DNA of 34,848 nucleotides from Gemmatimonadota bacterium (GTDB lineage Bacteria; Gemmatimonadota; Gemmatimonadetes; Palauibacterales; KS3-K002), in contig JBDHAI010000005.1 of the NCBI GenBank assembly GCA_039588155.1, positions 1 to 34,848 of the forward strand, written 5' to 3'. Shown here one piece after another: positions 1,825 through 33,666 of this stretch. The first letter of the stretch is position 1, and the number at the start of each line of letters is the position of its first letter. Position numbers and translations under genes: made by a program. The notes beneath the pieces are model-generated. The model ran no database searches. It was not told the origin of the DNA and saw only the letters and a list, made by a program, of their open reading frames with translations.

Positions 1825-1850
1825 TCATGAACTCTCCCTCTCGCTCCGCG

Positions 1851-4700
1851 CTATCGAAGCAACGTCATCTTCTTCGTCTGTACGAACGGCCCAGCCGCAA
1901 TCCGGCAGAAGTAGATTCCGCCCGCCACAATTCGACCGGCATCGTCCCGTCCATCCCACAGCACCGAGTATCGGTCCGCGGCCCGACGTGCGTCGAGTAG
2001 TGTCCGTACAAGTCTCCCGGACACGTCATAGATACGGATCGATACGTCGGCGTCATGCGCAAGTCCGAATCCGATTCGCGTGTCGGCGCCGAACGGGTTC
2101 GGGCGATTCTGTTCGAGGAAGTTTGCCTTCGGTGGGCCAGTTTCCTCGACACCCACCACTAGATCCGGTCCGAGCATCGCATGCGGGCTGGCGTTGTCAT
2201 GGATGTCGATGGCTTCGATCTTGTAGTAATAGCCGTCGTCCCAGTGCCAGTCGCCGTCGTGATATCCCGGCGCCACCGGCTCATCGATCAAATTGCCGGG
2301 GCCGGGTGTAAATCCGGCTTGCGTTCCCCGGTAGACTGCGTAATGCGACATATCCGCTTCGGTGTTGGCATCCCACGTGAGTTCAAGCCCTTCCGGCCCC
2401 GTCTGGTTGCCGGTCAGGTTCTGTGGCATCGCGGGTGCAATGTCGTCCACGGAGTAACCGCTGTCCGGAGCTGAGATGTAGAACACCAATTCGTCGCTGG
2501 TGTGCGCGATTACTTGGTAGTAGTTGTACTCCCAACCGGCGGCGGTGGAGTCGAAGAGCGTAGGCTCCGGATACCCGTATGTTTCGAGATGGTAAGCACC
2601 CGTCGTGTCAATGGGGTGCCAGAAAAACAGCTGGCCGGCGATCTGTTCAATCCGGACGGTGCCGCCCGCCTGTAGCACGAGGGATCCCGCTGCCAGAACC
2701 GCTGTTACTTCTTCGTTCTCCATCAATGTCTGCGCCGCCGTCTCGCTGATCGCTCGCCAGACGGTGTACTGCGTGATCTGACCACCCGCGGCGGGAAGGT
2801 CGAGTGCGCTGGCAAACCACGACAAGTAGATATGTCCCCCCTGGTCGAAGGGAACGTCACGCACAGCGGATATCACGGGCACCGGGTACGAGAACGCGTT
2901 GAACGCCGTGTTGTCGGTCTCGTCGTACTCGGCAACTTGATCGAGATCATCGGCAACAACGCCGAGGTAGATGTCGCCGCGCGGTGCGGTTTTCGGCAAT
3001 GTTGCCACAATAACCACCGTTGTATCGGAGCCGGAATCGATATTCGTGACAGCAACGGAGTCGACTATCACATCGTTCGTTGTAATGACCGTGTCAGCCG
3101 ACACCCGGAGCGTCACGCGGAATACTCCCGATGGACGATCGCCGAGGTTGGATATCTGAATAGACGCGGTCACTGGGTCATGGCCCTTCGTTGTCCCCGC
3201 CGTCGAGCTGAACGTCGTGACTTCGAGATCGGCAGCCGCACCAATCCCTTGCATGGGGACGGTGAGGGTGCTGTCGGTTTGATCGTCGCTCGCAATCGTC
3301 AACGTGTCGACAAACCCGCCGATGCTGTCGGGGGTGAATTCGACCGCGACCCACTGGCTGTCTCCGGGCGCGACGCTGAAGGTGGTGACGGAGGGTACGA
3401 AGTAGATCGACGTCGCGGACACGTCACTCACGTTCAGTGTGGCCCCGCCGATGTTGTATACCGTCAACGTCTCGACGCCCGTCGAACTCGTCGGCACCGG
3501 GCCGAAATCCAGCGCGGAGGGCGACACGTCGATAGCCGTAGGAAACAGGAAACCGGTGTTGTTACCCAGATCGGTGCAAGCGAGCACTGTCAGTGTCGGC
3601 GTCGCATATCCGTCCTGGATCTTCGCATGGGAGATGCTGACGGTAGCCAACGAATCGTAGTCCAGTGTCCACTGCGTACCGCCGGCGACCCCGTCTTGCT
3701 CGAGCGTGATCTGGTTGGCACCGGTACCTCCCGTGATCTCGAATGTCCCGGTTCCGTTGACGTCGATGGTCTTGCCGGCGCCGAAGCTCAGCTCGCATCC
3801 GTCGGCCGACATCTCGAATGTTCCCGAGTCCACCACGATGTCGTCGCCAAAGCTGTAGACGTTTCCCGTCCCGGTCGTGTTGCTTAGAGTGGCTCCAAAC
3901 CAGACGATTAGGCGGCCGGAAATGTCGAGTTCCGCCTGGCTGATGTCCAACTGGCCTCCCACGCGGAGTGAATCGGCTATTTCGGCGGCGCCGCCCAGGG
4001 TACTGATATCGCTCGTCAAGTAGGCATCAATGGCCCCGAAGACTTGGCCGGCCTTCGCCGCCAACGTCCCTCCCATCGTCATGTCGATCCTTCCGCCTCT
4101 CATATCCACCTGGGCCAGCTGTGACAGATCGATGTATCCTCCCATCCCACCGGGGGTCATGATCGTCATCGTTCCGACGATGGACCCGCTTGAACTGCCG
4201 TAGATGTCCCCCAATACCGAAATGAAACCGGATCCGGTGACCGGGCCGTAGATGTAAAGATGGTTATTAGTCGACACCGACCCGGTCCCTGTATTCATGT
4301 ATCCTTGGATCGTCATGTCGTTCGCGCTCAAATTCCAACTTTGGATTTGTGTATTTGCAAGCGTGGCGGGGCCACTCACCGAGAGGAAATTCTGCAAGAT
4401 CAGCGTTCCACCCCATGCCGACATGTTCAATGCGGCCAGATTGAGACCGCCGATATCCATGAAACTGGACCCGCCTCCGGATGAGAAAATCACCGTCCAG
4501 CCACTCATTGGTGCGCCAGATGACCAATTGGCGCTCTCGGACCAGTTGTTGGACGCACCACCGCCAGTCCACGTGGTCGATTGGGCAAACACGGCGCTCG
4601 TTGTCGCAAAGCCGGATAAAACTACCAGTAGTAAGACAATTGAGACGCGCTTGGAGCGAACTTGACATGGCATGTCACTCGACCGGGAAAACCGTTCCAT
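1851..4700 (-). CDS. Large secreted multi-domain surface protein with T9SS/FlgD-like C-terminal sorting domain
   Basis: 949-aa ORF with GGGAGAG 7 nt upstream of the ATG. Signal peptide: KRVSIVLLLVVLSGFATTSAVFAQ. The N-terminal region is G/T/S-rich and beta-helix-like. It has an Ig-like segment (DVSPSALDFGPVP...TLTVYNIGGATLNV), a CARDB-like segment (ADLEVTTFSS...ISNLGDRPSGVFRV...DETDN) and an Fn3-like segment (PAMPQNLTG...LTWDANTEADMSHYAVYRG). The C-terminal ~85 aa (NRPNPFGADTRIGFGL...VSIRIYDVSGRLVRTL...WDGRDDAGRIVAGGIYFCRI) match the T9SS type A / FlgD Ig-like CTD pattern. Confidence 0.85.
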   Translation of the reverse strand: MERFSRSSDMPCQVRSKRVSIVLLLVVLSGFATTSAVFAQSTTWTGGGASNNWSESANWSSGAPMSGWTVIFSSGGGSSFMDIGGLNLAALNMSAWGGTLILQNFLSVSGPATLANTQIQSWNLSANDMTIQGYMNTGTGSVSTNNHLYIYGPVTGSGFISVLGDIYGSSSGSIVGTMTIMTPGGMGGYIDLSQLAQVDMRGGRIDMTMGGTLAAKAGQVFGAIDAYLTSDISTLGGAAEIADSLRVGGQLDISQAELDISGRLIVWFGATLSNTTGTGNVYSFGDDIVVDSGTFEMSADGCELSFGAGKTIDVNGTGTFEITGGTGANQITLEQDGVAGGTQWTLDYDSLATVSISHAKIQDGYATPTLTVLACTDLGNNTGFLFPTAIDVSPSALDFGPVPTSSTGVETLTVYNIGGATLNVSDVSATSIYFVPSVTTFSVAPGDSQWVAVEFTPDSIGGFVDTLTIASDDQTDSTLTVPMQGIGAAADLEVTTFSSTAGTTKGHDPVTASIQISNLGDRPSGVFRVTLRVSADTVITTNDVIVDSVAVTNIDSGSDTTVVIVATLPKTAPRGDIYLGVVADDLDQVAEYDETDNTAFNAFSYPVPVISAVRDVPFDQGGHIYLSWFASALDLPAAGGQITQYTVWRAISETAAQTLMENEEVTAVLAAGSLVLQAGGTVRIEQIAGQLFFWHPIDTTGAYHLETYGYPEPTLFDSTAAGWEYNYYQVIAHTSDELVFYISAPDSGYSVDDIAPAMPQNLTGNQTGPEGLELTWDANTEADMSHYAVYRGTQAGFTPGPGNLIDEPVAPGYHDGDWHWDDGYYYKIEAIDIHDNASPHAMLGPDLVVGVEETGPPKANFLEQNRPNPFGADTRIGFGLAHDADVSIRIYDVSGRLVRTLLDARRAADRYSVLWDGRDDAGRIVAGGIYFCRIAAGPFVQTKKMTLLR

Positions 4701-5031
4701 CGTGATCTCTCCCTTTGCATCGGGGCAGAGCCTCGACTACACCTCTCGAGGTATTTCGAGACATTCGTATTTGCTCTAGTCATAAGGCACGCTATGCACC
4801 ATTGTATCCGGAATCGACTGAGGCGAGAATGATGCACTTGCATTATATCTTCGCGCGACATTTCGGGCCTATACTCTGCAACCAATGGTCGAGATCGTTG
4901 TGCCGCCGTCGGCGCATAGGCGTTCACGACCCCTTCGGCATCCTCGGCAGCGCGCCAATTTGCGTCTCGATCATTCCTAACAGTCTCCAAATGCTCCTCG
5001 CTGGATGGCCTCTTCCTTCAAGGAGGCGAAG

Positions 5032-6150
5032 ATGTCTGCGCTATTACGAATCGCCTTGGTAGCGGTTACGACCAGCGCGCTTCTGATCTCACAAACAGGC
5101 TGTAGCGAGGATATCAGCTGCCCAGAAGACTGGCACGCTTGTCCGCCTGTCGTCGTGGACATGGAATTCGTGAACCTGTGCGTGGACAGCGCGACAGCCC
5201 TGCAGGTGAGAATCGAAGCGACGCACGAATACTTTGACTTTCCGTGGGGCTCTATCTGGATTGAAGTGCCCCGCTGGAACAATGCTACCGTGATTGACAG
5301 TCTCGGGGGCGGTGAATACTGCCTGACAAATACGATGTATCCGGATGCGGAGCCAATTGCGCTCGGTGAAGAGGCACGCTTTGCAATGCATTTCGAAGGC
5401 GGTTATCACGTCGTGGTCAAAGACGCGGTATTTCTGAAGGACACGGTGGCAACGACTTGTTACGACGCCGCTCCCTGCCCGCGGGGGTCGGGAGTCGGCG
5501 TTCTGGTCGATTACGATATGTCGGCCGGCCTGGAATTGGAGGTATTCAACGCCAACGATTTCAGCGGGGCGGATCCCGTTGCCCTCTTCGAGCTGCAATG
5601 GGCGGCGGCGACCGACACGCTGCCGATCAGTAACCTGGTGTGGGGAGATTCCCTGCTGGAGTCATTGGCCTGGACCTCGCCGGCCACCAATCTGCCCGTG
5701 ACGCTGCTGCCGGGGCAGCCGCCGCTGGTATACGACATCCCCGACAACGATGTGTTGGATGCCGATGTCGTTCTCGTACGTGCTCATTCATCTTCGTCGA
5801 CACTGGAAACGAAGGGCATTGTCCAGGGAGACCTGCGAAGCAGCGGTACGGGAGTCACCGGTGGTTCCATACCAGGATTCCGTCTCATGGGGAGCTACCC
5901 CCATCCCTTTTCCGAGAGCACGACGATCGAGTATGAGCTCGAACGTCCCTCAGACGTAGTACTCACCATCTACGACGTTCGCGGCAAACGGGTGGCACGG
6001 ATCAAAAAGCCGAGCTCGCTCGCCGGACGTCAGACGATCACCTGGTCGGGCAAGGACGAGGCCGGGCGGAAGGTCAGATCGGGCGTCTACTTCTGTCGGC
6101 TTGAAGCGGGTCGGTATAGCGACACGAGGAAGATAGTAGTCGTCAGGTAG
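5032..6150 (+). CDS. Secreted hypothetical protein with T9SS/FlgD-like C-terminal sorting domain
   Basis: ATG at 5032 follows AGGAGG with a 6-nt spacer, which I prefer over the track start at 5005. N-terminus MSALLRIALVAVTTSALLISQTGC is a signal peptide with a weak lipobox. The C-terminus (YPHPFSESTTIEYELERPSDVVLTIYDVRGKRV...WSGKDEAGRKVRSGVYFCRLEAG) follows the same CTD pattern as the neighbouring gene. Confidence 0.8.
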   Translation: MSALLRIALVAVTTSALLISQTGCSEDISCPEDWHACPPVVVDMEFVNLCVDSATALQVRIEATHEYFDFPWGSIWIEVPRWNNATVIDSLGGGEYCLTNTMYPDAEPIALGEEARFAMHFEGGYHVVVKDAVFLKDTVATTCYDAAPCPRGSGVGVLVDYDMSAGLELEVFNANDFSGADPVALFELQWAAATDTLPISNLVWGDSLLESLAWTSPATNLPVTLLPGQPPLVYDIPDNDVLDADVVLVRAHSSSSTLETKGIVQGDLRSSGTGVTGGSIPGFRLMGSYPHPFSESTTIEYELERPSDVVLTIYDVRGKRVARIKKPSSLAGRQTITWSGKDEAGRKVRSGVYFCRLEAGRYSDTRKIVVVR

Positions 6151-8755: not shown

Positions 8756-9081
8756 TGCGAACAGCGGCGTGCCCGTGTACCGGCAGCTCATCGACCAGAT
8801 CCGGTTCCACGTGTCCACCGGTCTGCTCCGGCCCGGTGATGAGCTGCCCTCGACGCGCGCCCCTGGAACGGGATGGCGTGGTGCAGCGCCGCCCTGGACT
8901 GCCGCTCGTCGTCAAGGCCGTCGCCGACGGGGAAGCCGAGACGCGCAGGGCGGACCAGGTTCGCGAGGCGCTGGCGGCCGCGGTGCGGGTGATCCGGCAG
9001 CTGGGTGTGGCGCCCGAAGAGGCGACCCGAGCGCTCGAAGACATGTTGCAGGAAGAGACCGATAAGGAACGGGAGAGTTGA
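8739..9081 (+). pseudogene. YtrA-subfamily GntR transcriptional regulator, disrupted by internal deletion of the recognition-helix region plus a frameshift
   Basis: Frame 0 from ATG 8739 reads MLIVVDANSGVPVYRQLIDQIRFHVSTGLLRPGDELPSTRA, a typical YtrA/GntR N-terminus. After about 8860 the homology continues only in the +1 frame: LERDGVVQRRPGLPLVV...VREALAAAVRVIRQLGV...LEDMLQEE, stop at 9081. The roughly 19 aa expected between PSxR and LExxG (the ELAxxLxVNxNTVxKAYxE helix) are missing. Confidence 0.6.
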
Positions 9082-9082
9082 C

Positions 9083-9985
9083 ATGAACATCATCGAATTC
9101 AAAGACGTGCGCCGCGCCTACGTCGAGGGACTCGACGTGCTCAAGGGCATCACCTTTCGCGTGCAGTCCGGCGAGGTCGTCGGATTGCTCGGACGCAACG
9201 GCGCGGGCAAGACCACGCTGATCCGCATCGCTATGGGGATGCTGGAGGCGCAGTCCGGCTCCGCCCGCCTGTTCGGTCTCGACCCCCGGAGCAAGCCGCT
9301 CGAGGTCAAGCAACGCGTGGGGTACGTATCCGAAGACCAGGTGCTTCCGCCCTTCATGCGGGTGCGCGAGGTGATCGCGCTGCACCGGAAACTCTTCAAT
9401 GACTGGGATGACGATACGGCGCGGCGGCTCGTCGAGCGCTTCCGCCTGCCCCTCGAGAGCCGGATCTCCCAGATGAGCAAGGGGCAGGCGCGGCAGGTGG
9501 CACTTCTCTGTGCGGTGTCGCACCGGCCGGAGCTGCTGCTGCTCGACGAGCCGGCGGGCGGCCTCGATCCGGCTGCGCGGCGCGAGTTTCTGGAGACGTC
9601 CATTCAGCTGCTCAACGAGACCGGATCGACCATTCTGTTCTCCTCGCACCACCTCAACGACGTCGAGCGCATGGCCGACCGCGTGGTGCTCATTCACGAG
9701 GGCGAGCTCCTGCTCGACAGCGACATGGACCGCATGCACGAGGGCTACTCGATTGCACTCGTCCCCTACGAGGTCAACGGCGACGGGGCCGTGCGCCGCA
9801 CGCTCGCCCGCCACGAGACCTGCATCGCCGTTCGCGAGCGCGCCGACGCTTTGCACGCGGTGTTCGCCCTCCCACCCGACGGGGCGCGCGACGTGCTGGG
9901 CGAGCAGTTCGGGATCAAGGGGGCACACTGCCGCACCGCGGCTCTCGAAGAGATGTTCATCGAGCTGGTGGAGGGACAGTCATGA
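9083..9985 (+). CDS. ABC transporter ATP-binding protein
   Basis: Starts MNIIEFKDV. Walker A GRNGAGKTTL, signature MSKGQ, Walker B LLLLDEPAGGLD, H-loop FSSHH. Its stop overlaps the next start (ATGA). Confidence 0.9.
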   Translation: MNIIEFKDVRRAYVEGLDVLKGITFRVQSGEVVGLLGRNGAGKTTLIRIAMGMLEAQSGSARLFGLDPRSKPLEVKQRVGYVSEDQVLPPFMRVREVIALHRKLFNDWDDDTARRLVERFRLPLESRISQMSKGQARQVALLCAVSHRPELLLLDEPAGGLDPAARREFLETSIQLLNETGSTILFSSHHLNDVERMADRVVLIHEGELLLDSDMDRMHEGYSIALVPYEVNGDGAVRRTLARHETCIAVRERADALHAVFALPPDGARDVLGEQFGIKGAHCRTAALEEMFIELVEGQS

Positions 9986-12498: not shown

Positions 12499-14352
12499 CT
12501 ACACGTGTTCGACGTTCGTGTACCGCGCCACGTCGTCACTAAGCGTCAGGATGTCGGTTTGATCCAGCTTGTGCACGTCGTCCCGGCCGTTAGTTCGTGC
12601 GAAATGCTTCAACTCCTCCAACGTGCCATTGAAGAAGTTCACGAAGCGGTCCACGGCCCGGTCAATATCGAACAGTCGCCGCAGCCCTGGGTCCTGCGTG
12701 GCGATACCGACCGGGCAGAGACCGGTGTGGCACACACGCGCCTGCCGGCAACCCACCGCGACCATCGATGCCGTGGCCAGGGCCACCGCATCGGCACCCA
12801 AGGCCAAGGCCTTGGCTATGTCTGCGCTGTCACGGAAGCCACCTGTCACACAGAGCGTCGCATTGCTTTCGGCCGCGTCCAGCGCTTTGCGCGCGCGGTG
12901 GATGGCGTAGATTGGTGGAATGCAGACGTTGTCTTTGAGAAAGGTCGGTGCCGCGCCCGTTGCGCCTCCCCGACAGTCGATCGTGATAAAGTCCGGCTTC
13001 GCCTCGAGCGCGAAGGCGATATCCGCCTCGACATGGCCGGCGGCAAACTTGATCCCCACAGGTTTGCCGCCGGTCAGGGCTCGCAGATGGTCCACCTCCC
13101 GTTTTAAGTCGTCGATGCTCGAAATGTCCGCATGACGGCCGGGAGAAACGGAGTCTTCTCCCATCTGGATACCACGAATCTGCGCGATCTCCGCGGTGAT
13201 CTTCTCCTTTGGCAGGTGGCCACCCATCCCCGGTTTGGCCGCTTGCCCGATCTTGATCTCGGTTGCATCAGCCTGCCGGATTACGTCGTCGTTGTGCGAG
13301 AAGCATGCCGTGCCCAGTTCGTAGACGTACCGAGCTGCTTCCTTCCGTTCCTCGGGCAACATGCCACCCTCGCCCGAGCACATCATCGTGCCCACGAGCC
13401 GGGAGCCGCGCGCCATGGCGATCTTGGCTTCACGGGCCAGGGCACCGAAAGACATGTGGGACACATAGAACGGAATTTCGATTTCCAGCGGATGGTCCGC
13501 CGTCCTTCCGATCACCGTCTTTGTCATGACGTCCTCGTCCTCGTTCAGCGGCATGCGTGCAAGCTGGGCACCCTTGAAGACGATAGAATCCCAATCCGCG
13601 AAGAGCCTGCGCGTACCCATCGAAGAGATGTTGCTCTTGCCGGTCCCCGCCAACATCTCTACGCGGCCCAGCTTCGGCGGCAGGACGTGCGGCCGTCGCA
13701 CCGCCGCCCGACGACCCTCGCCGTCGTCCCGGAAGTGGACGTACCAGTGGCTGCCGTCACAGAAGGGCTTGTTCTTCGATTCGCCGCAACGGCACAGCGT
13801 GTAGTGCTCAGGTGACGCAGGCGCCTCGTCCGTGCGCGTCTCCAGCTTCGGCCCTCCGACGATCATGTATGGACCGTTCTCCACGAGACGGACTCCAGGG
13901 TTCCGATCCTGGGCGTTGTGGAGAACGCCATCTATCGAGTAGCTCAGCGCCCCAGACGGACACCTCTGTATGATCTCGATGATTCTCTCCGGCACGGCGC
14001 CATCCGAATCGATCCACGGCTCCGTCCCCATCCGCCACACCTTTGGCAGGCCGTCGGTGCAAAAACCGGCGTGCGAGCAAACACCGCGGTTGTCATGGAT
14101 GACGATCTTCTGGCCCCCGTACGTGTCCACCCGATCCGGCTGGCGGCCGGGCTTCTTATCGCCCCTCCACCCAATCTTGCCGTGCGTGCCGTCGCAGTAC
14201 GGCTTCTCCTCGGAGCGTCCGCACCGACAGAGTGCCATCACGGGACGTGTCGTGATGGGCTTGCCGGACGGAGCCGTCATGTTGTCCAGCCCGCTCACGA
14301 CGAGCGGGCCGTTCGGGACCACGTCGATCGTGAAAGCATCCTTGTCGCGCAT
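12499..14352 (-). CDS. Fusion protein: two CDGSH iron-sulfur domains plus a ferredoxin-like mono-cluster segment plus a glutamate synthase (GltB domain 2)-related FMN oxidoreductase
   Basis: Two CDGSH motifs: CRCGRSEEKPYCDGTH and CRCGESKNKPFCDGSH. Between them lies a Cys-rich segment (GVCSHAGFCTDG...QRCPSGAL). The C-terminal ~400 aa carry glutamate-synthase-related motifs: MSFGALAREAKIAMARGS, CSGEGG, KIGQAAKPGMGGHLP, ITIDCRGGATGAAP. Confidence 0.8.
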   Translation of the reverse strand: MRDKDAFTIDVVPNGPLVVSGLDNMTAPSGKPITTRPVMALCRCGRSEEKPYCDGTHGKIGWRGDKKPGRQPDRVDTYGGQKIVIHDNRGVCSHAGFCTDGLPKVWRMGTEPWIDSDGAVPERIIEIIQRCPSGALSYSIDGVLHNAQDRNPGVRLVENGPYMIVGGPKLETRTDEAPASPEHYTLCRCGESKNKPFCDGSHWYVHFRDDGEGRRAAVRRPHVLPPKLGRVEMLAGTGKSNISSMGTRRLFADWDSIVFKGAQLARMPLNEDEDVMTKTVIGRTADHPLEIEIPFYVSHMSFGALAREAKIAMARGSRLVGTMMCSGEGGMLPEERKEAARYVYELGTACFSHNDDVIRQADATEIKIGQAAKPGMGGHLPKEKITAEIAQIRGIQMGEDSVSPGRHADISSIDDLKREVDHLRALTGGKPVGIKFAAGHVEADIAFALEAKPDFITIDCRGGATGAAPTFLKDNVCIPPIYAIHRARKALDAAESNATLCVTGGFRDSADIAKALALGADAVALATASMVAVGCRQARVCHTGLCPVGIATQDPGLRRLFDIDRAVDRFVNFFNGTLEELKHFARTNGRDDVHKLDQTDILTLSDDVARYTNVEHV

Positions 14353-15705: not shown

Positions 15706-15960
15706 TCATTCTCCCCGACCGTCCGGCTGTTTGCCGAGAATGGTCCTCTCGAGACGCCGGAGCACGTCGGGATCCCCTGTCTTTCCACGTGGGCCGAAGA
15801 TCCTGCTGGCGGCGACGCCAATCGCCCGAAGCTGCGCCGCGTAGCGGCGGCAATGCCGGCACATCATCAGGTGGAAGCGAACCGCCAACCGCCTCGTCCA
15901 CGCGGCTTCTTCCAGGCCGTCCGAGGCGAGAATGCCGGCAACTTCCTTACAGTCTAGCAT
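15706..15960 (-). CDS. Anti-sigma factor, zf-HC2 type
   Basis: MLDCKEVAGILASD...HLMMCRHCRRYAAQL follows the H-x3-C-x2-C zinc-finger anti-sigma pattern. The preferred ATG at 15960 overlaps the end of the sigma gene by 14 nt. Confidence 0.7.
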   Translation of the reverse strand: MLDCKEVAGILASDGLEEAAWTRRLAVRFHLMMCRHCRRYAAQLRAIGVAASRIFGPRGKTGDPDVLRRLERTILGKQPDGRGE

Positions 15961-16636
15961 CGCGACTCCCTCTGATTCCTCTGGCTTCCAGGCACTCCCG
16001 CAGCCGGTTCCGGCAGCGGTGTAGCATCGCCCCAAGGTTCGTGCGGGTTACGTCGAGAATGTTACATATTTCCTGGGAAGAAAATCCTTCGGCCTCGCGC
16101 AGGACGAAGGCGAGCCGCTGCCGCATGGGGACGGTGTCGAGGCACTCACGGAGCCACTCGCGGATCTCGCCGTGATACACGTCGGTGTCCACGGCGCGGG
16201 GCGGCCGGAGCCAGCTACCGTCGGAACTGAACCGCTGTTCGACGATTTCATCGATGTCATCATGCTGCTGGCTACGACTCGCCTCACGTCGGAACTCGAG
16301 CACTTTCTTGTAGAAAATCCCGAAAAGCCACGTGCGGACGTGGGCGCGGCCGTGGAAGCTGGGGGCCTTTTCAATGAATGTGGCAAACGTCTCCTGGGTG
16401 ACGTCCTCGGCTTGTGTCTCGTCTAGTCCCGCGCCGCGAGCAGCGCGGAGGATGTGGGAAAGATATGCCTTCACCACAACCTCGATCGCGGCCCGGTCGC
16501 CCGCTCGAATCCGCTCCGCGAGGCCGGGGTCGTCGATGGACAGGGGACTCCTGCGCGACGATTCCCTAGTGATATCCGGCACCTCCTGATTTACAGGACC
16601 AAGCCTGTAACAAAAAGACACCCTCGCCGCACACAC
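15947..16636 (-). CDS. ECF-type RNA polymerase sigma-70 family factor
   Basis: Region 2-like DVTQETFATFIEK...RTWLFGIFYKKVLEFRR and region 4-like PMRQRLAFVLREAEGFSSQEICNILDVTRTNLGAMLHRCRNRLRECL. The track start is GTG; the true start is uncertain. Confidence 0.8.
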   Translation of the reverse strand: MCAARVSFCYRLGPVNQEVPDITRESSRRSPLSIDDPGLAERIRAGDRAAIEVVVKAYLSHILRAARGAGLDETQAEDVTQETFATFIEKAPSFHGRAHVRTWLFGIFYKKVLEFRREASRSQQHDDIDEIVEQRFSSDGSWLRPPRAVDTDVYHGEIREWLRECLDTVPMRQRLAFVLREAEGFSSQEICNILDVTRTNLGAMLHRCRNRLRECLEARGIRGSRDARL

Positions 16637-16691: not shown

Positions 16692-17183
16692 ATGAATACA
16701 AGACGAATCCTCCACGGGGCCTACGGCGGCCTGGCCGGTGGTCTGATCTTCGGCGCGATGATGGCCAAGATGGGCACGCTGCCGATGATCGGCAAGATGA
16801 TCGGGCAGCCGAGCGCTGCGGCCGGCTTTCTCCTGCACATGGTCAACAGTGCAGTCATCGGCGCCGGCTTTGCCATCGTCGTGAACCTCATCAAAGCCAA
16901 CCACAGCGCATGGGTCCGCAGCCGGACAGCCGCGCTGGTTCACGGGCTCGCCTACGGTGGCTTGTGGTGGGTGCTGGGACCGCTGACGCTGATGCCGCTG
17001 TTCCTGGGCATGGGACTCGGCGTCAACTGGAACCTTACGGCCGCGGGGGCCATGCTGCCCAGCTTGGTAGGACACCTGGTCTACGGTGCGGTCCTCGGCC
17101 TCACCTACGGCACTTTGCAGAGTCGCGTCGCCGTGACCCGAGCGGCCGTATCGCTCAAAGCGTCCGCGGCGGGAGGCAAGTAG
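16692..17183 (+). CDS. Small integral membrane protein (about 4 TM, internally repeated), unknown function
   Basis: 163 aa with GGAAAGGAG upstream. Gly-rich helices appear in two similar halves (YGGLAGGLIFGAMM... and YGGLWWVLGPLTLM...). Confidence 0.6.
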   Translation: MNTRRILHGAYGGLAGGLIFGAMMAKMGTLPMIGKMIGQPSAAAGFLLHMVNSAVIGAGFAIVVNLIKANHSAWVRSRTAALVHGLAYGGLWWVLGPLTLMPLFLGMGLGVNWNLTAAGAMLPSLVGHLVYGAVLGLTYGTLQSRVAVTRAAVSLKASAAGGK

Positions 17184-17304: not shown

Positions 17305-17733
17305 ATGAAACGCAGCATAGTGAGTCTCAGCATGCTTCTGGTCGCTCTCGTGGTCGGCGTGGGTTTTGCCGAGAAGGCGGCGGAAACCCCCGCCCTGGAC
17401 GGCTACTGCCCGGTCGCGTACGTTGCGATGAACCAGGCGGTCAAGGGTGATCCGGAGATTTCCCTGGACTACGCCGGCAAGCACTTCGTGTTCGTGAACG
17501 CGGACGCGAAGAAGATGTTCGAGGCGGATCCCGCGAAGTACCACGTCGCCTACGACGGCTACTGCGCGACCGCCATGTCCATGAGTAAGACGCTGGCAAG
17601 CGATCCGACCCTCTTTACGCTCGAGCAGGGCGTGACCTACCTGTTCTCGAGTACCGAGGCCAAGGAGATGTTCGACGCCGCGCCGGCGGGTTTCATCGAA
17701 AAGGCCGACACACAGTGGGCGTCGCTCGACTAA
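17305..17733 (+). CDS. Secreted tandem YHS-domain protein (Cys form)
   Basis: AGGAGG upstream and a signal peptide. Two YHS-like repeats: LDGYCPVAYV...YAGKHFVFVNADAKKMFEADPAKY and YDGYCATAMS...GVTYLFSSTEAKEMFDAAPAGF. Confidence 0.7.
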   Translation: MKRSIVSLSMLLVALVVGVGFAEKAAETPALDGYCPVAYVAMNQAVKGDPEISLDYAGKHFVFVNADAKKMFEADPAKYHVAYDGYCATAMSMSKTLASDPTLFTLEQGVTYLFSSTEAKEMFDAAPAGFIEKADTQWASLD

Positions 17734-17739
17734 CCAAGG

Positions 17740-17776
17740 GGTCGGAGGCGCCTCGCTTGCCGGGGCGCCTCCGACC
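17740..17776 (+). other. Perfect 13-bp GC-rich stem-loop between the YHS and DUF3179 genes
   Basis: GGTCGGAGGCGCC-tcgcttgccgg-GGCGCCTCCGACC. No U-tract follows, so it is not a canonical intrinsic terminator. Confidence 0.7.
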
Positions 17777-17812
17777 ACCGATATGCGCCGCGGTCCCTGA
17801 GGGGGGAGTGGT

Positions 17813-18796
17813 ATGAACCGTTTCACGTGGATAATCGTTCTCGTTCTCGCGGTGTGGTGCGCGGTGACGGCGGCGCCCTCGCGGGCCCAGCCGTCCGAGT
17901 CTCCGCCGGAAGGCGTTCAGCAGATACTGCCGCGGGGCGAGATTCCGGCCGTATTCGACCCGACGTTCGTTCCGGCCGCCGAGGCGAAGATACCCGACGA
18001 CGCCTGGGTGCTCGGTGTGATCCTGGATGGTGTAGCGAAGGCGTACAGCCTGAACCTGCTCAATCATCACGAGGTGGTGAACGACCGCTTCGGTGCGCGC
18101 GCGCTGGCGGCCGTCTGGTGACCCCTCGCCAATACGGCCGTCGTGTACGACCGCAGGATCGGAGATCATGAGTTGAGTTTCGAGCCGTCGGGCGCGCTCG
18201 AGATGGCCTCACTGGTGATGCGGGACCGCGAGACCGACAGCTGGTGGTCCATGATGCAATCGAGGGCGATCGGCGGGGAGCTGGCCGGAACGCACCTGCA
18301 GGAGCTGCCCGTCGGAGAGAAGGCCACGTGGGCGGCCTGGCGCGCGCGGTATCCGAACACGCTCGTTCTGTCGATCGACAGTCTCGAGCACGTCGACAGC
18401 AATCCCTACGACTCGTACTTCGCCGACGAGCGCACCTTCCGCGGGATCGAAGTGGAGGACGATCGGCTGGCGCCGAAGGCGCCCGTCTACGGCTTTCGAA
18501 TCGACGGCGGGCCGTTCGCGATCGCCCACGATCGCATCGAGGGCGGGCTCGTGGTCGAGGTCGATGGACTGCCCGGGAAGCGCCTGCTCTTCTACCGGCC
18601 TGCGGGCGCGTCGGTCTACCGGTCGACCGTGGCGGTCTCTCTTCCGGTAGACGCCGTCGTGGAGGGTGACCTCACGGACCTGGTCGCCCGCATCGGGGAG
18701 GGAACGTTGGACGGAGCCGAGCGGCTCGACGGGTTCGACACCTTCTGGTACACGTGGGTCCTGGCGAACCCATCGACCCGTCTGCTCTCCCCGTGA
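17813..18796 (+). CDS. DUF3179 domain protein with an in-frame TGA (18119-18121) at the first Cys of the CPLC motif; candidate selenoprotein
   Basis: ORFs 17813..18121 and 18143..18796 share one frame and are separated only by the TGA. The joined sequence reads ...VLGVILDGVAKAYSLNLLNHHEVVNDRFGARALAAVW-[TGA]-PLANTAVVYDRRIGDHELSFEPSGALEMASLVMRDRETDSWW. This matches the DUF3179 pattern (...AYP...HE.VND..GG.P.AVTYCPLC.T..VYDR...L.F..SG.L....LVM.D..T.S.W). Signal peptide at the N-terminus. Confidence 0.6.
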
Positions 18797-26658: not shown

Positions 26659-27030
26659 TTGAAAGTTGCAATACCCTGCATGGGAGAGGTCGTCGCGCCG
26701 TGTCTGGAGTGCGCGGCCACGATCGCGATCTTCACCACTGAAGGTGGAAAGGTCGTGGACCGGCTCGAGTTTCCCATCTCGAGTCGAGAGCCGCTCGACC
26801 GGATTCGGCTCCTTCGCGACCAGAAGGTGGACACGATCATCTGCGGGGGAGTGCAGGACGCCTACGAAGACCTGGTACTCGCGAGCGGCGTCAGACTGAT
26901 CTCGTGGGTCTCCGGGAACGTCGAGGATCTGCTCGCTCAGTACCTGGGCGGGCGACTCGAACCAGGAAAGCGCGCCGGTAAGACGAAGGCACCCGGCCAC
27001 GGCGAGAACGGGTCCGGTCATGCCAACTGA
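26659..27030 (+). CDS. NifX/NifB-like (dinitrogenase FeMo-cofactor-binding fold) protein, paralog A
   Basis: TTG start after GGAG. The sequence is (M)KVAIPCMGEVVAPCLECAATIAIFTTEGGKVVDRLEFP...DRIRLLRDQKVDTIICGGVQDAYEDLVLASGVRLISWVSGNVEDLL. It fits the MKIAIP...FxI...VdvVIcGgIg...L...GI.V pattern of the Nitro_FeMo-Co family. Confidence 0.7.
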   Translation: MKVAIPCMGEVVAPCLECAATIAIFTTEGGKVVDRLEFPISSREPLDRIRLLRDQKVDTIICGGVQDAYEDLVLASGVRLISWVSGNVEDLLAQYLGGRLEPGKRAGKTKAPGHGENGSGHAN

Positions 27031-28150
27031 AGACGTCAGGGGCTGGCTCCAGGCGAACCTCTTTGACGCCGTTCCTGTCAGCATCTGCGTCATCGACCGG
27101 TCCTTTCGCGTCATCGTCGCGAACGAGCTCTTCGGCAAGACCTACGGACCCTGGGAGAACCGCTACTGCTACTCGGTCTACAAGGACCGGTCGGAGCGCT
27201 GCATACACTGTGGGGCTCGTGAAACGTTCAATGACGGGAAGATCCGATCCCGGGAAGAGCAGGGCAGGACGCACGATGGACGCCGGATCGAGTACCTGGT
27301 TCACCTCGTCCCGATGGTGCAGCCGGGCGGCGAGGTCCGTCACGTGATAGAGATGTCCACCGACATCAGCGACCTGAAGAGACTCGAGAAGGAGAAGACC
27401 GAGGCCGAGCGGCTTGCGGCCGTGGGGGAGACGGTGGCGGGCATCGCGCACGGGCTCAAGAATGTACTGATGGGTCTGGAAGGGGGCATGTACGCCTTCA
27501 GCACGGGGCTCGACAAGGGCGATGCGGAGCGGATGTCCCAAGCCTGGAGCATGTTGCAGGGGAACATCAATCGCGTGTCGAGGTTCGTCCGGGAGTTCCT
27601 GGACTTCGCGAGAGGGCGAGCCCCGGATGTCTCGGTGGTGGATCCGAACGAGCCGGCGAGAGACGTCGTCGACTTGTTCAAGGAGATGGCGGCGAAGGAG
27701 GGCGTGACCCTCGAGGGGAACTTTCACAAGGGTATGGCGGAAGCGTTTCTCGACAGAGAGGGAATCCACACCTGCCTGGCCAATCTCATTTCGAATGCCA
27801 TACAGGCATGTAGGATGAGCGACCGGAAACGGAAGTACAAGGTGACGCTTTCCACCCGCGAGAAGAACGGATCGATACTGTACGAAGTGACCGACAACGG
27901 ATGCGGGATGGACTACGACGTCAGCAGGAAGGTGTTCTCGAGTTTCTTCAGCACCAAGAGCGCGGACTCCGGCACCGGTTTGGGACTTCTCACCACGAAG
28001 AACATCGCCCACCAGCACGGCGGCAAGGTGTCGTTCGAGACGGACGAGGGGGTAGGCTCGGTCTTCAGAATCGAGTTACCACGTAGGAACCTACCCGTAC
28101 CAGACGCGGACAAGGAAACGGGAGCGGCTCAAACAAACGAAAACGCCTGA
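27020..28150 (+). CDS. Cytoplasmic PAS sensor histidine kinase
   Basis: Overlaps the preceding gene by 11 nt. The PAS domain carries a Cys cluster (YCYSVYKDRSERCIHCG). H-box AAVGETVAGIAHGLKN. ATPase motifs: NLISNAIQA, TDNGCGMD, GTGLGL. No TM helix. Confidence 0.85.
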   Translation: MPTEDVRGWLQANLFDAVPVSICVIDRSFRVIVANELFGKTYGPWENRYCYSVYKDRSERCIHCGARETFNDGKIRSREEQGRTHDGRRIEYLVHLVPMVQPGGEVRHVIEMSTDISDLKRLEKEKTEAERLAAVGETVAGIAHGLKNVLMGLEGGMYAFSTGLDKGDAERMSQAWSMLQGNINRVSRFVREFLDFARGRAPDVSVVDPNEPARDVVDLFKEMAAKEGVTLEGNFHKGMAEAFLDREGIHTCLANLISNAIQACRMSDRKRKYKVTLSTREKNGSILYEVTDNGCGMDYDVSRKVFSSFFSTKSADSGTGLGLLTTKNIAHQHGGKVSFETDEGVGSVFRIELPRRNLPVPDADKETGAAQTNENA

Positions 28151-28167: not shown

Positions 28168-28707
28168 ATGGCCAGAGCACAAGACAAGACCGTCCTCGTG
28201 GTGGACGACGAGCCGGATGTGCGCAACTACCTTTCCATGATTCTCACAGACGCCGGCTTCAACGTTGTTAACGCGAGCGACGGTGTGGAAGCCCTGGAGA
28301 TCATCCGGGAGAAGAAGCCCGACTTCATTTCGCTCGACTTGGTCATGCCGAGGAAGAGTGGACATAAGCTGTTGTACGAGTTGAGAAAGGACCGAGAGCT
28401 TTCGCGCATCCCGGTGCTGATCGTCACGGCACACGCACAGACGGAACTCGGCAAGAGCGACCTGGACGACATCATGGAGAGCAAGGTGATCTCGGGCCCG
28501 AGCGTCTATCTGGAGAAGCCGGTCAGGCCCCAGGACTACGTAAGATCCGTGCAGCGAGCCCTCGGCATCGAGGAGGCCGAGGTCACCGACGACAAGATGG
28601 GGATCCAGAAGGAACTGGAACAAGAGCTGCGCAACGCGAGCACCGATTCAATGAAGCGCGCCCTGGAGATGCTCAAAAAGAAGAAACACACGGACGGTCA
28701 AAAATGA
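28168..28707 (+). CDS. Response regulator, receiver domain only plus a charged helical C-terminal tail
   Basis: VLVVDDEPDVRNYL...PDFISLDLVMP...PVLIVTA...LEKP are CheY-like receiver motifs. No DNA-binding domain. Confidence 0.85.
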   Translation: MARAQDKTVLVVDDEPDVRNYLSMILTDAGFNVVNASDGVEALEIIREKKPDFISLDLVMPRKSGHKLLYELRKDRELSRIPVLIVTAHAQTELGKSDLDDIMESKVISGPSVYLEKPVRPQDYVRSVQRALGIEEAEVTDDKMGIQKELEQELRNASTDSMKRALEMLKKKKHTDGQK

Positions 28708-29624
28708 GCGAACTGCAGATTCTAATGTATGTCGCCTATGCGTTCCTCTTCGTGGGTACGGGGTACAGAGCCTACAGAATGGCGAGAATGCCCGTGCACC
28801 TGCGGTGGGACCTCTATCCCATCCCCCACGAAAAGGGACGGGGACACTACGGAGGGTCGTACTTCGAGGAAGTCGACTGGTGGACGAAGCCGGCCGAGGT
28901 ATCGGTGCGAAGCGAGCTCCGAGAAGTGGCCAAGGAAATCCTGTTCATCCAGTCCATGTATCACAACAACCGCTCCTTGTGGGCGTGTTCCTTCCCGTTT
29001 CATTTTGGACTCTATGCGCTGATCGTCTTCGTCTTCCTGATATTCCTCGGGGCGTTTCTCGACCTGGTGGGGATATCGGTATCCGCAGAGGGCAATCTGC
29101 TCGGCAGATCCTTGTACTACGTGACGGCGCCCCTGGGCCTGTTCGGCTCGGTGCTGGTCACCCTGGGCGCCGCGGGCCTTCTGGTGAGCCGGGTGGCACG
29201 GGTGGACCTGCGCCGCACATCCGTACGCAGCGACTACTTCAATCTGATCCTGCTTCTGGCCGTGTCCGTAAGCGGGATTGTGGCCTGGGGTGCCGACGAT
29301 CTCTCCTATTCGCAATCGAGGCTGTTCATCGCTCGCTTGATTTCCCTGCAACCGGCGGAGCCCGTGTCGGCCGCGTTTGCCACGCATCTCGTGCTGGCCG
29401 CCGTCTTCATGATTTACCTCCCGTTCACTCACATGACGCATTTCGTGGGTAAGTACTTCACCTACCACAAGGTTCGCTGGGAGGACAGCCCGAACGTCAG
29501 GGGAAGCGTGCTCGAGAAGAGAATCAATGAGGCGCTTGGGTACACCGTGACCTGGGCGGCGCCGCACATCAAGACCGGCGGCACTTGGGCCGAAGCCGCA
29601 ACGGAAGAGAGTACCAAGAAATGA
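28704..29624 (+). CDS. NarI/DsrM/HdrE-like membrane di-heme cytochrome b subunit (nitrate reductase gamma family), paralog A
   Basis: ATGA overlap with the response regulator gene. About 6 TM helices with conserved His in helices: PVHLRWDLYPIPHE, FPFHFGLYAL, ATHLVLAAVFMIYLPFTHMTHF. Confidence 0.7.
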   Translation: MSELQILMYVAYAFLFVGTGYRAYRMARMPVHLRWDLYPIPHEKGRGHYGGSYFEEVDWWTKPAEVSVRSELREVAKEILFIQSMYHNNRSLWACSFPFHFGLYALIVFVFLIFLGAFLDLVGISVSAEGNLLGRSLYYVTAPLGLFGSVLVTLGAAGLLVSRVARVDLRRTSVRSDYFNLILLLAVSVSGIVAWGADDLSYSQSRLFIARLISLQPAEPVSAAFATHLVLAAVFMIYLPFTHMTHFVGKYFTYHKVRWEDSPNVRGSVLEKRINEALGYTVTWAAPHIKTGGTWAEAATEESTKK

Positions 29625-31237
29625 GCAAGGGCAAGAGGGTGACGATCAAGGATTTCTGCACCAAATCGGGCCAGCTCGTCGAGCTGGACACCACACAGTT
29701 CCCGCCGCTGCCGGCCCCATACGACGAGCTCGATCTCGTGCCGAAGATCAAGCCGCTCTCGCAAGAGGTCAAAGACAGACTCGAGAGCGACCTCGACGGC
29801 GTGTCGGCGGTCAAATTCCCTCGCCCGGAAACGGAAGAGGAGAAGCGGGAGCTCGTAGGGCGGTTTCTCTCGGGGCTGAAGAAGCTCTTCGAGCGGGAGA
29901 ACAACTGGGGCTTCATGCAGCCGTTGTTCCTGACCATCGAGTACTGCGCGAAGTGTCAGACGTGCGCGTCGGCCTGCCCGATCTACAACGAATCGGGCGA
30001 ACAGGACATCTATCGGCCGACCTACCGCTCGGACATTCTGCGGCGTCTGTACAAGAAATACGTAAAGCAAGGCGGCAAGATCCTGGTCAAGATATCAGGC
30101 GATGACATCGAGGCCAGCTGGCTGATGATCGCTCGCGTACTGGAGCTCAGCTATCGCTGTACCGTTTGCCGCCGCTGCGCCCAGACCTGCCCCATAGGTG
30201 TGGACAACGGCCTCGTAACGCGCGAGTTGAGGAAGATATTCAGTCAGGAGATGGGCGTTACGATCGAACAGCTGCACCAAAAGGGATCCGTCCAGCAGCT
30301 CGAGAAGGGGTCCAGCACCGGGATGACACCGGTCGCATTCCTGGACAACATCGAGTTCCTCGAGGACGAAGTGGAAGAGAGAACGGGGATGAAGTTCAAA
30401 TGGCCGATGGACAAGGCGGGAGCGGATGTTCTCTTGATTCACAACGCCGGCGAGTATCTGGCGTGGCCAGAGAATCCAGAGGCCTTCGCGATCATCCTGG
30501 AGAAGGCCGGCATCAGCTACACGCTTTCGAGCGAGCTGCTCGGGTATGACAGCGTCAACTATGGTGTGTGGTACGACGACGTGCAGTTTGCCAAGGTGGC
30601 CCTCAAGCACGCACAGATCGCAAAGGATCTCGGCGTCAAGAAAATCGTCCTGGGCGAGTGCGGCCACGCCCACAAGGCCCTGACGGTGATCGCAGATCGT
30701 GTGTTCTCCGGTGACTACAACATCCCCCGCGAGAGTTCTCTGACGCTGCTCCGCGATATCGTGACGAGCGGGAAGCTCAAACTGGACCCGGCGCGAAATG
30801 ACGACATGACGACCACGCTCCACGATCCCTGCAACATCGTGCGGCTGATGGGGATAGTCGAACCGCAGCGCGAGATCCTGAGAGCCGTGTCCAATCACTT
30901 CCGCGAGATGACACCTCACGGGGTGCACAACTACTGCTGCGGCGGCGGAAGCGGGTTTGCGATAACCGCGAACACCAACTTCCCGGACTGGCGCACCGTG
31001 GTGTCATCCCGGGCCAAGTTGCGACAGATACTCGACGTCTTCAGTGACGTCATCGGACCGGAGCACAAGAAATACGTCTGTGCGCCGTGCTCGAACTGCA
31101 AGGGCGCGATGCGCGACATGTTTGCCGCCTATGGCCTGTTCGAGCGGTGCAACATACTCTATGGAGGCCTCGTGGAGCTGGTCGTAAATGCGATGGTCGA
31201 TGTTGAGAAGCCTTTTCTCGAGTGGGAGTTCCACTAG
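29621..31237 (+). CDS. HdrD/DsrK-like iron-sulfur protein (two 4Fe-4S motifs plus CCG domains), paralog A
   Basis: ATGA overlap with the upstream gene; starts MSKGKR. Cys motifs: CAKCQTCASACP, CTVCRRCAQTCP, LHDPCNIVR, NYCCGGGSG, CAPCSNCKGA. Confidence 0.85.
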   Translation: MSKGKRVTIKDFCTKSGQLVELDTTQFPPLPAPYDELDLVPKIKPLSQEVKDRLESDLDGVSAVKFPRPETEEEKRELVGRFLSGLKKLFERENNWGFMQPLFLTIEYCAKCQTCASACPIYNESGEQDIYRPTYRSDILRRLYKKYVKQGGKILVKISGDDIEASWLMIARVLELSYRCTVCRRCAQTCPIGVDNGLVTRELRKIFSQEMGVTIEQLHQKGSVQQLEKGSSTGMTPVAFLDNIEFLEDEVEERTGMKFKWPMDKAGADVLLIHNAGEYLAWPENPEAFAIILEKAGISYTLSSELLGYDSVNYGVWYDDVQFAKVALKHAQIAKDLGVKKIVLGECGHAHKALTVIADRVFSGDYNIPRESSLTLLRDIVTSGKLKLDPARNDDMTTTLHDPCNIVRLMGIVEPQREILRAVSNHFREMTPHGVHNYCCGGGSGFAITANTNFPDWRTVVSSRAKLRQILDVFSDVIGPEHKKYVCAPCSNCKGAMRDMFAAYGLFERCNILYGGLVELVVNAMVDVEKPFLEWEFH

Positions 31238-31258: not shown

Positions 31259-31648
31259 TTGGCCCGAAAAATACTGATAGTCGATGACGAGGCCGATGCC
31301 AGGACCTATCTGGAAGTGTTGTTCCAGGAGAACGGCTACGAGACCGCGGTCGCGGTTGACGGCGATGAGGCGATGCCGAAGGTCAAAGAGTTCAAACCGG
31401 ACGTGATCACGCTGGACATCATCATGCCCCGCGAAAGCGGGCAGAAGTTCTATCGCGAGTTGGTGCGAGACCCGGAATTCGCAAAGGTGCCGGTCGTCGT
31501 ATGCAGCGGCGTGACGCGGTACCGGGAGCTGTTCTCGCGCGATCACCGTACCATGCCCAAGCCGTTCGCCTTTGTCGAGAAGCCCGTCGACAGGGACGAG
31601 CTTCTGCAGAAGATCAAGGAAGCGATCGCGTCTCGCGGCGAGGGGTGA
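31259..31648 (+). CDS. Single-domain response regulator (CheY-like)
   Basis: TTG start. ILIVDDEADARTYL...PDVITLDIIMP...PVVVCSG...VEKP. Paralog of the 28168 response regulator. Confidence 0.85.
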   Translation: MARKILIVDDEADARTYLEVLFQENGYETAVAVDGDEAMPKVKEFKPDVITLDIIMPRESGQKFYRELVRDPEFAKVPVVVCSGVTRYRELFSRDHRTMPKPFAFVEKPVDRDELLQKIKEAIASRGEG

Positions 31649-32237: not shown

Positions 32238-33659
32238 GTGACGACCAGCAAGTACAGCTACTACGTCGAGAACAGGACCCTGGAGGTGACGGAGCGGCCG
32301 AGGAAGTTCCTGGAGGCGTTCGCGGCCGTTCTGGAGCACGGAAGCTACGGCATCGCGCTCGATGCCTACGCGCGGATGTGCTCGCGCTGCGCGCGCTGCG
32401 CGAGCAGCTGCCAACTCTACGACACCACCGAGGCCGCGCGAGACATCCCCATCCACCGCTCGGAGCTGCTCCTGCGCGTCTACCGGCGGTACTTCACGCA
32501 AGGTGGACTGGCGAAGGCCCGGCTCTTCGGCGGGTTCGAGCTCAGCGACGAGTACCTGGATCTCATGGCCGAGGAATACTACCGCTGCACGGCTTGCCGA
32601 CGCTGCACGCGGTACTGCCCGCTCGGCATCGACCACGGCCTGATCACGCACCTCGCGCGCTGGCTGCTGGCGGAGGTCGGCGTGATACCGAAGGCGCTCG
32701 TGGTCTCCGTCCGCGAGCAGCTCGAGGGCGTGGGCAATACCTCCGCCATTCCGGTCGCGGCGCTCAAGGACACCTGCGAGTTCCTGGAGGAGGAGCTCGA
32801 GGAGCAGACGGGCCTGGATATCAAGTTCCCCTTCGACGTGGAGGGGGCGGAGTACATCTTCTTTCCGGCCGTCTCCGACTACCTGCTGGAGGCGGACACC
32901 CTGATGGGAAACGCGGCCGTGATGCACGTCACGGGCGGATCGTGGACGATCGGCACCGGAAACTTCGACGGCATCAACTATGGGCTGTTCTACAGCGACC
33001 GGATGATGGAGCGGATCGTCGCCAACCTCGTCGCGGAGGCCCGCAGAATCAACGCGAAGAAGATCCTCATCGGCGAGTGCGGGCACGCGACCCGTAGCGC
33101 CTGGTTCATACCGACGTTCGCCGGACAGGACAGCCCGCCGGTCGTGCACTGCATACAGTACGCCGCGCAGATGCTGAGGGAGGGGAAGCTCCCGTTGAAG
33201 AAGGGGAAAATCGAAGGTCGCGTGACCTACCACGACCCCTGCAACATCGCGCGCAGCGGGCGCATCGTGGAGGAGCCTCGGGAGATTCTCCGCGCCATCT
33301 GCGAGGAGTACGTGGACATGACGCCGAACCGGGCGGACAACTACTGCTGCGGCGGTGGCAGCGGAACGGTCTCGATCGACGAACTCCGCGAGTTCCGGAC
33401 GCACGAGGCGGGCAAACTCAAGGCGGAGCAGATTCGGGCCACCGGCGCGAACATGGTCGTCGCTCCTTGCGCCAACTGCAAGAAGCAGCTGCGCGAGGTG
33501 TGTGAGGACAACGGGCTCGAATCGGTTCAGATCACCGGGCTTCACGACTTGCTGCTGAAGGTCATCGATTTCGGGACGAGCGCCTCCAGCGGAGAGAACG
33601 CCGAAGATGCGAAGGGCGCGCCGGAAGTCACAACGGAAGCGGAAGCGAAGGGGGAGTAG
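32238..33659 (+). CDS. HdrD/DsrK-like iron-sulfur protein with CCG domains, paralog B
   Basis: GTG start. Cys motifs: CSRCARCASSCQ, CTACRRCTRYCP, YHDPCNIARSG, NYCCGGGSG, APCANCKKQL. Confidence 0.85.
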   Translation: MTTSKYSYYVENRTLEVTERPRKFLEAFAAVLEHGSYGIALDAYARMCSRCARCASSCQLYDTTEAARDIPIHRSELLLRVYRRYFTQGGLAKARLFGGFELSDEYLDLMAEEYYRCTACRRCTRYCPLGIDHGLITHLARWLLAEVGVIPKALVVSVREQLEGVGNTSAIPVAALKDTCEFLEEELEEQTGLDIKFPFDVEGAEYIFFPAVSDYLLEADTLMGNAAVMHVTGGSWTIGTGNFDGINYGLFYSDRMMERIVANLVAEARRINAKKILIGECGHATRSAWFIPTFAGQDSPPVVHCIQYAAQMLREGKLPLKKGKIEGRVTYHDPCNIARSGRIVEEPREILRAICEEYVDMTPNRADNYCCGGGSGTVSIDELREFRTHEAGKLKAEQIRATGANMVVAPCANCKKQLREVCEDNGLESVQITGLHDLLLKVIDFGTSASSGENAEDAKGAPEVTTEAEAKGE

Positions 33660-33666
33660 AGCGGCG

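Follow-up and report, generated by a model that had tools for sequence, protein, structure and literature searches.

An exported DUF3179-family protein whose in-frame UGA codon very probably encodes selenocysteine

Introduction

Selenoproteins of the DUF3179 family were reported from the Olavius algarvensis symbiont metagenome, and YHS-domain selenoproteins were introduced in the same study (Zhang & Gladyshev, 2007). Two reviews of prokaryotic selenoproteomes, of 2022 and 2026, list DUF3179 with the motif UxxC/T (U standing for selenocysteine, Sec), both citing that work; the YHS family is covered in them as well. The selenoprotein status of the family is already known, and in our protein search NCBI records of relatives were found to bear the name 'DUF3179 domain-containing (seleno)protein'. 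As for the signal that directs Sec insertion, the published model of the bacterial SECIS (the bSECISearch consensus) describes a hairpin with an apical loop of 3-9 nt and a stem of 4-16 bp, placed so that 16-37 nt separate the UGA from the loop, with a G among the first two nucleotides of the loop and a U after it, and with an energy cut-off of -7.5 kcal/mol.

We describe here a locus on a contig of 34,848 nucleotides (the whole stretch analysed, hereafter the window), which holds a new, mis-split member of this family. The gene and its relatives share with the published DUF3179 selenoproteins the Pfam domain PF11376, a Sec that comes first in a C/U-P-L-x motif, the existence of Cys-form homologues and a stem-loop after the UGA. 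They differ in motif, in the lack of another Cys in the mature domain of most of these proteins (see below) and in taxonomic range. While the Sec position is identical, the published motif is UxxC/T and the motif found here is UxxA, in the window and in 94 of 95 Sec-form relatives, the remaining one (L113) having a Cys as the fourth residue (UPLC). Furthermore, the published proteins come from a deltaproteobacterial symbiont, whereas the relatives found here belong mostly to the Acidobacteriota (Thermoanaerobaculia) and to other environmental phyla.

The hairpin compares in a similar way with the SECIS of the fdhF type from E. coli: it too lies in the coding region after the UGA and has a small apical loop with a G and then a U, but the copy in the window departs from this type and from the bSECISearch consensus by a C-A mismatch, by a low stability (-5.2 to -6.8 kcal/mol) and by the existence of two possible registers. 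With the selenoproteins of DUF3179 already on record, the scientific gain is small: the lone Sec of the UxxA motif and the almost universal Sec usage of the clade are modest refinements over the published description.

Results and discussion

One reading frame runs through the TGA

A reading of the window made from the letters alone (the sequence-only reading) had noted two open reading frames, 17813..18121 and 18143..18796, that lie in one frame and are split only by the TGA at 18119-18121. The ORF list and the translation agree with this: the two frames are joined through that TGA, and no other in-frame stop occurs from the ATG at 17813 up to the terminal TGA (Table 1). The accompanying claim, that read-through gives an uninterrupted DUF3179 protein, was borne out by Pfam. 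Indeed, when a Cys is placed at the TGA, the product matches PF11376 with 201.8 bits (E 2.1e-59, for a gathering cut-off of 27) in a single stretch that extends from position 2 to position 291 of the 292-position profile, corresponds to residues 42-321 and crosses the TGA. In the alignment of 30 full-length homologues, the C-terminus of the protein falls at the same end as theirs.

The N-terminal part begins with a putative signal peptide, inside which the sole Cys of the protein is located, and hydrophobic N-termini are also seen in the aligned full-length homologues. Taking these data together with those presented below, we consider it very probable that 17813-18796 is a single gene, that it specifies an exported protein of the DUF3179 family and that its UGA codon 103 encodes selenocysteine.

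Table 1. Features of the DUF3179 locus and of its upstream neighbour (window coordinates)
Feature	Position	Strand	Details and basis
Exported YHS protein, Cys form	17305..17733	+	two YHS-like repeats (GYCPVAY, GYCATAM); NF041384, Pfam YHS
Inverted repeat of 16 nt between the YHS and DUF3179 genes	17740..17776		arms 94% complementary, 5-nt loop
Shine-Dalgarno-like GGGGGGAG	17801..17808	+	4 nt 5' of the ATG at 17813; read from the sequence
DUF3179 protein, very probably a selenoprotein precursor; one gene	17813..18796	+	327 aa; start ATG 17813, predicted Sec codon 103, true stop TGA 18794-18796
Putative Sec-type signal peptide MNRFTWIIVLVLAVWCAVTAAPSRA	17813..17887	+	inspection of the translation alone
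UGA very probably read as selenocysteine	18119..18121	+	residue 103, context W-U-P-L-A-N; Cys column in homologues; next base C
Predicted SECIS hairpin, family-conserved register	18135..18153	+	18135-18141 with 18147-18153 (CGGCCGU / ACGACCG); C-A mismatch 18138/18150
Alternative hairpin register	18137..18154	+	GCCGUCG / UGUA / CGACCGC, one C-C mismatch; minimum-free-energy fold of the window

We examined in this light the possibility that the UGA is a true stop and that the locus yields an exported N-terminal fragment of 102 aa together with a separate C-terminal protein of 217 aa that starts at the GTG at 18143, as could be thought from the presence of this GTG 7 codons past the TGA and from the automatic ORF list, which gives both pieces. 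This explanation is very improbable. Inspection of the sequence before the GTG for a motif comparable to GGGGGGAG revealed no ribosome-binding motif, and the C-terminal piece would be devoid of a signal peptide. Moreover, the Pfam domain runs continuously through the junction, as does the AlphaFold model of a Cys-form homologue (P0004, see below), the first usable start past the TGA differs in position between homologues, and the split occurs always, and exactly, at the Cys codon.

The TGA occupies a conserved cysteine column and is shared by most relatives

A protein search returned 318 relatives of the window DUF3179 protein, which itself has no record elsewhere; full-length sequences make up about 30 of the best 120. 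In the alignment of 30 full-length homologues, the residue facing the TGA is a Cys in 29 cases and a Ser in one, within the motif VW-C-P-L-A-N. The sequence-only reading had equated the TGA with the first Cys of a CPLC motif; the Cys column stands, but the second Cys does not, since the fourth residue of the motif is an Ala in this clade.

The other relatives among the best 120 are about 215 aa long and start a few residues past the motif (e.g. MANTAVVYDR... or MVYGR...), as expected of a gene caller that stops at an in-frame TGA. A scan of GTDB with one genome per species gave 303 relatives. Of the best 80, 79 carry TGA at the Sec position and one carries TGC, while TAA and TAG never occur there. 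These 80 loci, whose Sec forms span at least seven phyla, come mainly from Acidobacteriota (Thermoanaerobaculia, including Multivoradales, Holophagae and Vicinamibacteria), but also from Krumholzibacteriota, Latescibacterota, Planctomycetota, Myxococcota (Polyangiaceae), Nitrospira, KSB1 and Calditrichia. With a Cys form as the seed, a scan of metagenomes gave 36 loci, 27 with TGA and 9 with a Cys codon (TGC or TGT), which brings to 10 the loci of the two scans with a Cys codon at the DNA level. The three closest relatives of the window gene, from metagenomes (L115, L116 and L117; 64-78% identity), all carry TGA at the same codon. The sequence-only reading had proposed to look for orthologues with the same UGA, and these loci provide them in number.

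It had also named decay of the downstream part in orthologues as a sign of a pseudogene, and none was seen. In the comparison with L115, dN/dS is 0.215 on the 5' side of the TGA and 0.169 on the 3' side; with L117, the values are 0.131 and 0.319, respectively. These ratios indicate that purifying selection maintains the gene halves on either side of the TGA, which excludes a pseudogene. More generally, the scenario of a nonsense mutation in a Cys codon, with the gene being dead or simply misread through an assembly or sequencing error, has a negligible probability. It would draw on the fact that TGA is one base away from TGC and from TGT and on the splitting of the gene by callers, which affects the window copy as well as most database entries and leaves the truncated proteins mentioned above. 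However, the same-codon TGA recurs in the species genomes (79/80) and in 27 metagenome contigs without TAA or TAG ever taking its place, a shared assembly artefact at homologous TGAs is implausible over so many projects, dN/dS is well under 1 on either side, and the hairpin described below is specific to the TGA forms.

As regards public records, the Sec forms of the UxxA clade are systematically mis-annotated. Gene callers split or truncate the window gene and most of its relatives, so that this selenoprotein is under-counted in annotated environmental genomes. Examples of database proteins that start just past the UGA are P0055, P0038, P0066, P0067 and P0112. The mis-annotated records include NCBI-annotated MAGs as well as complete chromosomes (L052 and L026). 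Complete chromosomes of Thermoanaerobaculia with the UGA form are, for instance, OZ245024.1, OZ243123.1 and OY761158.1.

A hairpin downstream of the UGA is conserved in the Sec forms and lost in the Cys forms

The sequence-only reading had pointed to a hairpin downstream of the UGA as a candidate bacterial SECIS. RNAalifold, run on 77 sequences, did not recover this hairpin and produced a meaningless consensus (-1 kcal/mol); we therefore tested an explicit structure instead. In the family register (Table 1), 85.4% of the cells are paired over 102 distinct Sec-form sequences, compared to 24-57% for slid controls; the alternative register, which corresponds to a slide of +3, reaches 56.7%. The peptide encoded by the stem region, TAVVY[G/D]R, is conserved, so that most pairs cannot vary and covariation is limited to a few of them. 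Pair 24-34 is intact in every sequence, as CG in 96, UA in 5 and UG in one, the UA cases combining a synonymous change of the Ala codon (GCC to GCU) with a Gly-to-Ser replacement (GGC to AGC). At pair 23-35, CG is replaced by GC in 3 of the 102 sequences. Altogether, the alignment of the hairpin contains 9 double-change cells, a number reached by none of 500 shuffles.

The constraint is also visible at synonymous sites. The entropy at stem codons +5, +6 and +9 is 0.31, 0.15 and 0.15, respectively, and these values are among the lowest of the gene, for which about 0.75 is typical; the Asn codon immediately beyond the stem shows 0.99.

The Cys-form genes (n = 10) differ from the Sec forms in this respect. 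Of 8 stem pairs, these genes keep 4.8 on average, compared to 6.83 for the Sec forms (Mann-Whitney p = 2.5e-7), and the wobble base of the Ala codon is a C in 2 of 10 Cys forms versus 96 of 102 Sec forms (Fisher p = 2.6e-7). Several of the Cys-form genes encode the identical peptide, PLANTAVVYDRR, and yet do not keep the stem. Judging from these alignments, the hairpin, conserved in the Sec forms and lost in the Cys forms as the candidate SECIS should be if it served the UGA, is predicted to be a genuine SECIS specific to the DUF3179 family, of which the window contains a weaker, mismatched copy. With the Cys column, the shared TGA and purifying selection on both sides, its restriction to the TGA forms upholds the reading of the UGA as selenocysteine.

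A side observation concerns the loop. On either side of its invariant G-U, the wobble positions of two Val codons (18142 and 18145 in the window, alignment columns 27 and 30) covary across the 102 Sec-form hairpins: the combinations are C..G in 58, G..C in 22, A..C in 14, A..U in 5, A..A in 2 and G..G in one, and C..C is not encountered. The C..G and G..C types are both found within Thermoanaerobaculia. In the GGUC loop of E. coli fdhF, a closing pair forms around an extruded GU. The covariation hints at a constraint within the predicted SECIS loop, possibly a closing pair of the same kind. If this is true, the DUF3179 clade would constitute a natural data set for the recognition rules between SelB and the SECIS, within an under-counted environmental selenoprotein.

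The window copy of the hairpin is weak and mismatched

In the family-conserved register, the stem of the window hairpin begins 14 nt past the UGA and consists of 6 pairs and one mismatch; the loop is CGUGU (18142-18146), in which G18143 and U18144 are invariant, the UGA and the loop are 20 nt apart and the energy is -5.2 kcal/mol. The alternative register has a UGUA loop, a 22-nt spacing from the UGA and an energy of -6.8 kcal/mol. The latter is the hairpin that the sequence-only reading had placed at 18137-18155: its sequence and its C-C mismatch are present, but it ends at 18154. Both registers fit the bSECIS model in loop, stem, position of the G and spacing, and both miss its stability threshold.

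The weakness of the stem in the window is associated with an Asp codon (GAC): the members of the family that have a Gly codon (GGC) instead form a perfect 7-bp stem of -12.4 kcal/mol. The mismatched version is not peculiar to the window, as it is found base-for-base identical over 32 nt (alignment columns 10-41) in L115-L117. The folding energy in the window is no better than that of shuffled sequence (z = -0.16 to +0.9), so that the hairpin is no evidence by itself and its significance comes from the cross-genome comparison only. The sequence-only reading was right on this point, having deemed the hairpin alone indecisive.

TGA is a stop elsewhere in the window

We also ensured that TGA serves as a stop in other genes of the window. 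Genes supported by Pfam that end in TGA include an ABC ATPase (9005-9985), a histidine kinase (27020-28150), two response regulators (28168-28707 and 31259-31648) and the NarI-like genes, and the DUF3179 gene itself terminates with TGA. This agrees with the earlier argument, built on examples such as the TGA at 9983-9985, against a recoding of TGA over the whole genome. Furthermore, a six-frame scan for internal TGAs, requiring at least 40 open codons on each side and a coding-like GC3, gave 18119 as the only credible case in the 34.8-kb window, and hence no further selenoprotein candidate there.

These observations bear on a third explanation, namely that the UGA is decoded as an amino acid other than Sec, either through a genome-wide reassignment to Trp or Gly or through read-through by a near-cognate tRNA (Cys or Trp) in a weak UGA-C context. 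The base that follows the UGA is indeed always a C in the TGA-form sequences, and in E. coli no termination context is leakier than UGA-C. In addition, no Sec machinery was seen in the DNA that was searched: selA, selB, selC, selD and tRNA-Sec are absent from the window, apparently one whole contig of 34.8 kb, where ARAGORN found no tRNA and no tRNA-Sec and a scan with Rfam gave nothing above gathering scores, and tRNA-Sec is likewise absent from the 60 homologous loci scanned (L001-L060). We nevertheless regard such a decoding as very improbable. A reassignment is at odds with the Pfam-supported genes that end in TGA and with the occurrence of one in-frame TGA in 34.8 kb; the location of the UGA at a conserved Cys position is the hallmark of Sec/Cys exchange; and a hairpin with a GU in its loop at the right distance fits SelB-dependent decoding, while plain read-through would not select it. 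Finally, Acidobacteriota are, according to the literature, a phylum with known Sec users.

Predicted decoding and properties of the protein

On the model of the known pathway in bacteria, decoding would proceed as follows. During translation, UGA codon 103 would not be read as a stop; the mRNA 14-35 nt past the UGA would fold into a short hairpin displaying a G-U dinucleotide in its loop; and this hairpin would recruit SelB-GTP-Sec-tRNA(Sec) to the ribosome, with insertion of selenocysteine as the outcome. We infer SelB dependence and actual selenium incorporation from this general mechanism.

Given its putative N-terminal signal peptide, the mature DUF3179 protein should act outside the cytoplasm. 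The mature domain is devoid of any other Cys in 86 of 95 Sec-form proteins. With a UxxA motif and no further Cys, the selenol cannot form an intramolecular pair of the CxxC type; it more likely acts alone, as a nucleophile or as a ligand of a metal or metalloid, although this is a guess.

An AlphaFold model was built for P0004, the closest full-length Cys homologue (pLDDT 95.9). In this model, the Cys position terminates a beta-strand and is followed by a short helical turn. A fold search of the model against the PDB gave no match at E <= 0.001; weak partial matches to small Rieske/NirD-like domains (probability <=0.6) were not relied on. Similarly, the DUF3179 profile had no significant match among PDB sequences.

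We tentatively raise the possibility, which we hold to be rather doubtful as a whole, that the UxxA clade is a functionally distinct branch of DUF3179: exported, with a lone selenol as the sole redox- or metal-active residue, almost obligately dependent on Sec and commonly mis-annotated as truncated. In any event, the lone Sec of the UxxA motif and the near-constant Sec form may help work on the function of DUF3179.

The YHS neighbour and the gene neighbourhood

The gene upstream of the DUF3179 gene had been described as coding for a secreted tandem YHS protein in its Cys form, which proved accurate: the product scores 98.7 bits against NF041384, 'YHS domain-containing (seleno)protein' (cut-off 70, residues 30-139), and 30.5 bits against Pfam YHS, and it contains the two repeats listed in Table 1. 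The remark that the YHS family includes selenoproteins is likewise correct in view of the work of Zhang & Gladyshev (2007) and of the naming of NF041384. While this family has Sec forms, the neighbour found in the window is of the Cys form (GYC).

The YHS neighbour is no conserved partner of DUF3179. Adjacency of the two genes is rare, being observed at 3 of about 120 other loci (L086, L106 and L108), where the YHS gene is downstream and of the Cys form, and clustering of the flanking ORFs over 110 loci revealed no recurrent partner gene near DUF3179. The inverted repeat that lies between the two genes in the window is not followed by a T-run; it may mark a transcription boundary, or be a terminator-like or regulatory stem.

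One locus, L086 (Ga0214472_10003091), brings together three genes within 902-4457, two DUF3179 genes and one YHS gene. The gene at 902-2128, on the minus strand, codes for a DUF3179 paralogue of the Cys form (motif SYCPLTGSG), which was seen only in L086. The Sec-form UPLA gene lies at 3001-3915, and the Cys-form YHS gene is directly downstream, at 4035-4457.

Further upstream in the window, a DUF6789-like membrane protein (16692-17183, plus strand) is encoded just upstream of the YHS gene; the match is weak, with 18.6 bits, below the cut-off. Divergent from it, on the minus strand (15706-16636), are an ECF sigma factor gene and a short ORF that has no Pfam match and could code for an anti-sigma factor. 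Homologues of ECF sigma or anti-sigma factors also occur near DUF3179 in L009, L045, L070 and L109.

Other genes in the window

The remainder of the window contains several genes that deserve mention in their own right. Two pairs, at 28704-31237 and 32238-34368, each consist of a membrane protein of the NarI-like type (PF02665) and a 4Fe-4S/CCG-domain protein (PF13183, PF02754); they resemble DsrMK or HdrDE modules and adjoin a PAS histidine kinase and response regulators. On the minus strand, at 12499-14352, a protein of unusual architecture combines an FMN domain of the glutamate-synthase type, two CDGSH iron-sulfur fingers and Fer4_19. Lastly, large secreted proteins with T9SS C-terminal sorting domains and FlgD-Ig-like domains are encoded at 1851-4700 (minus strand) and 5005-6150 (plus strand), and the sorting domains hint that the source organism has type IX secretion.
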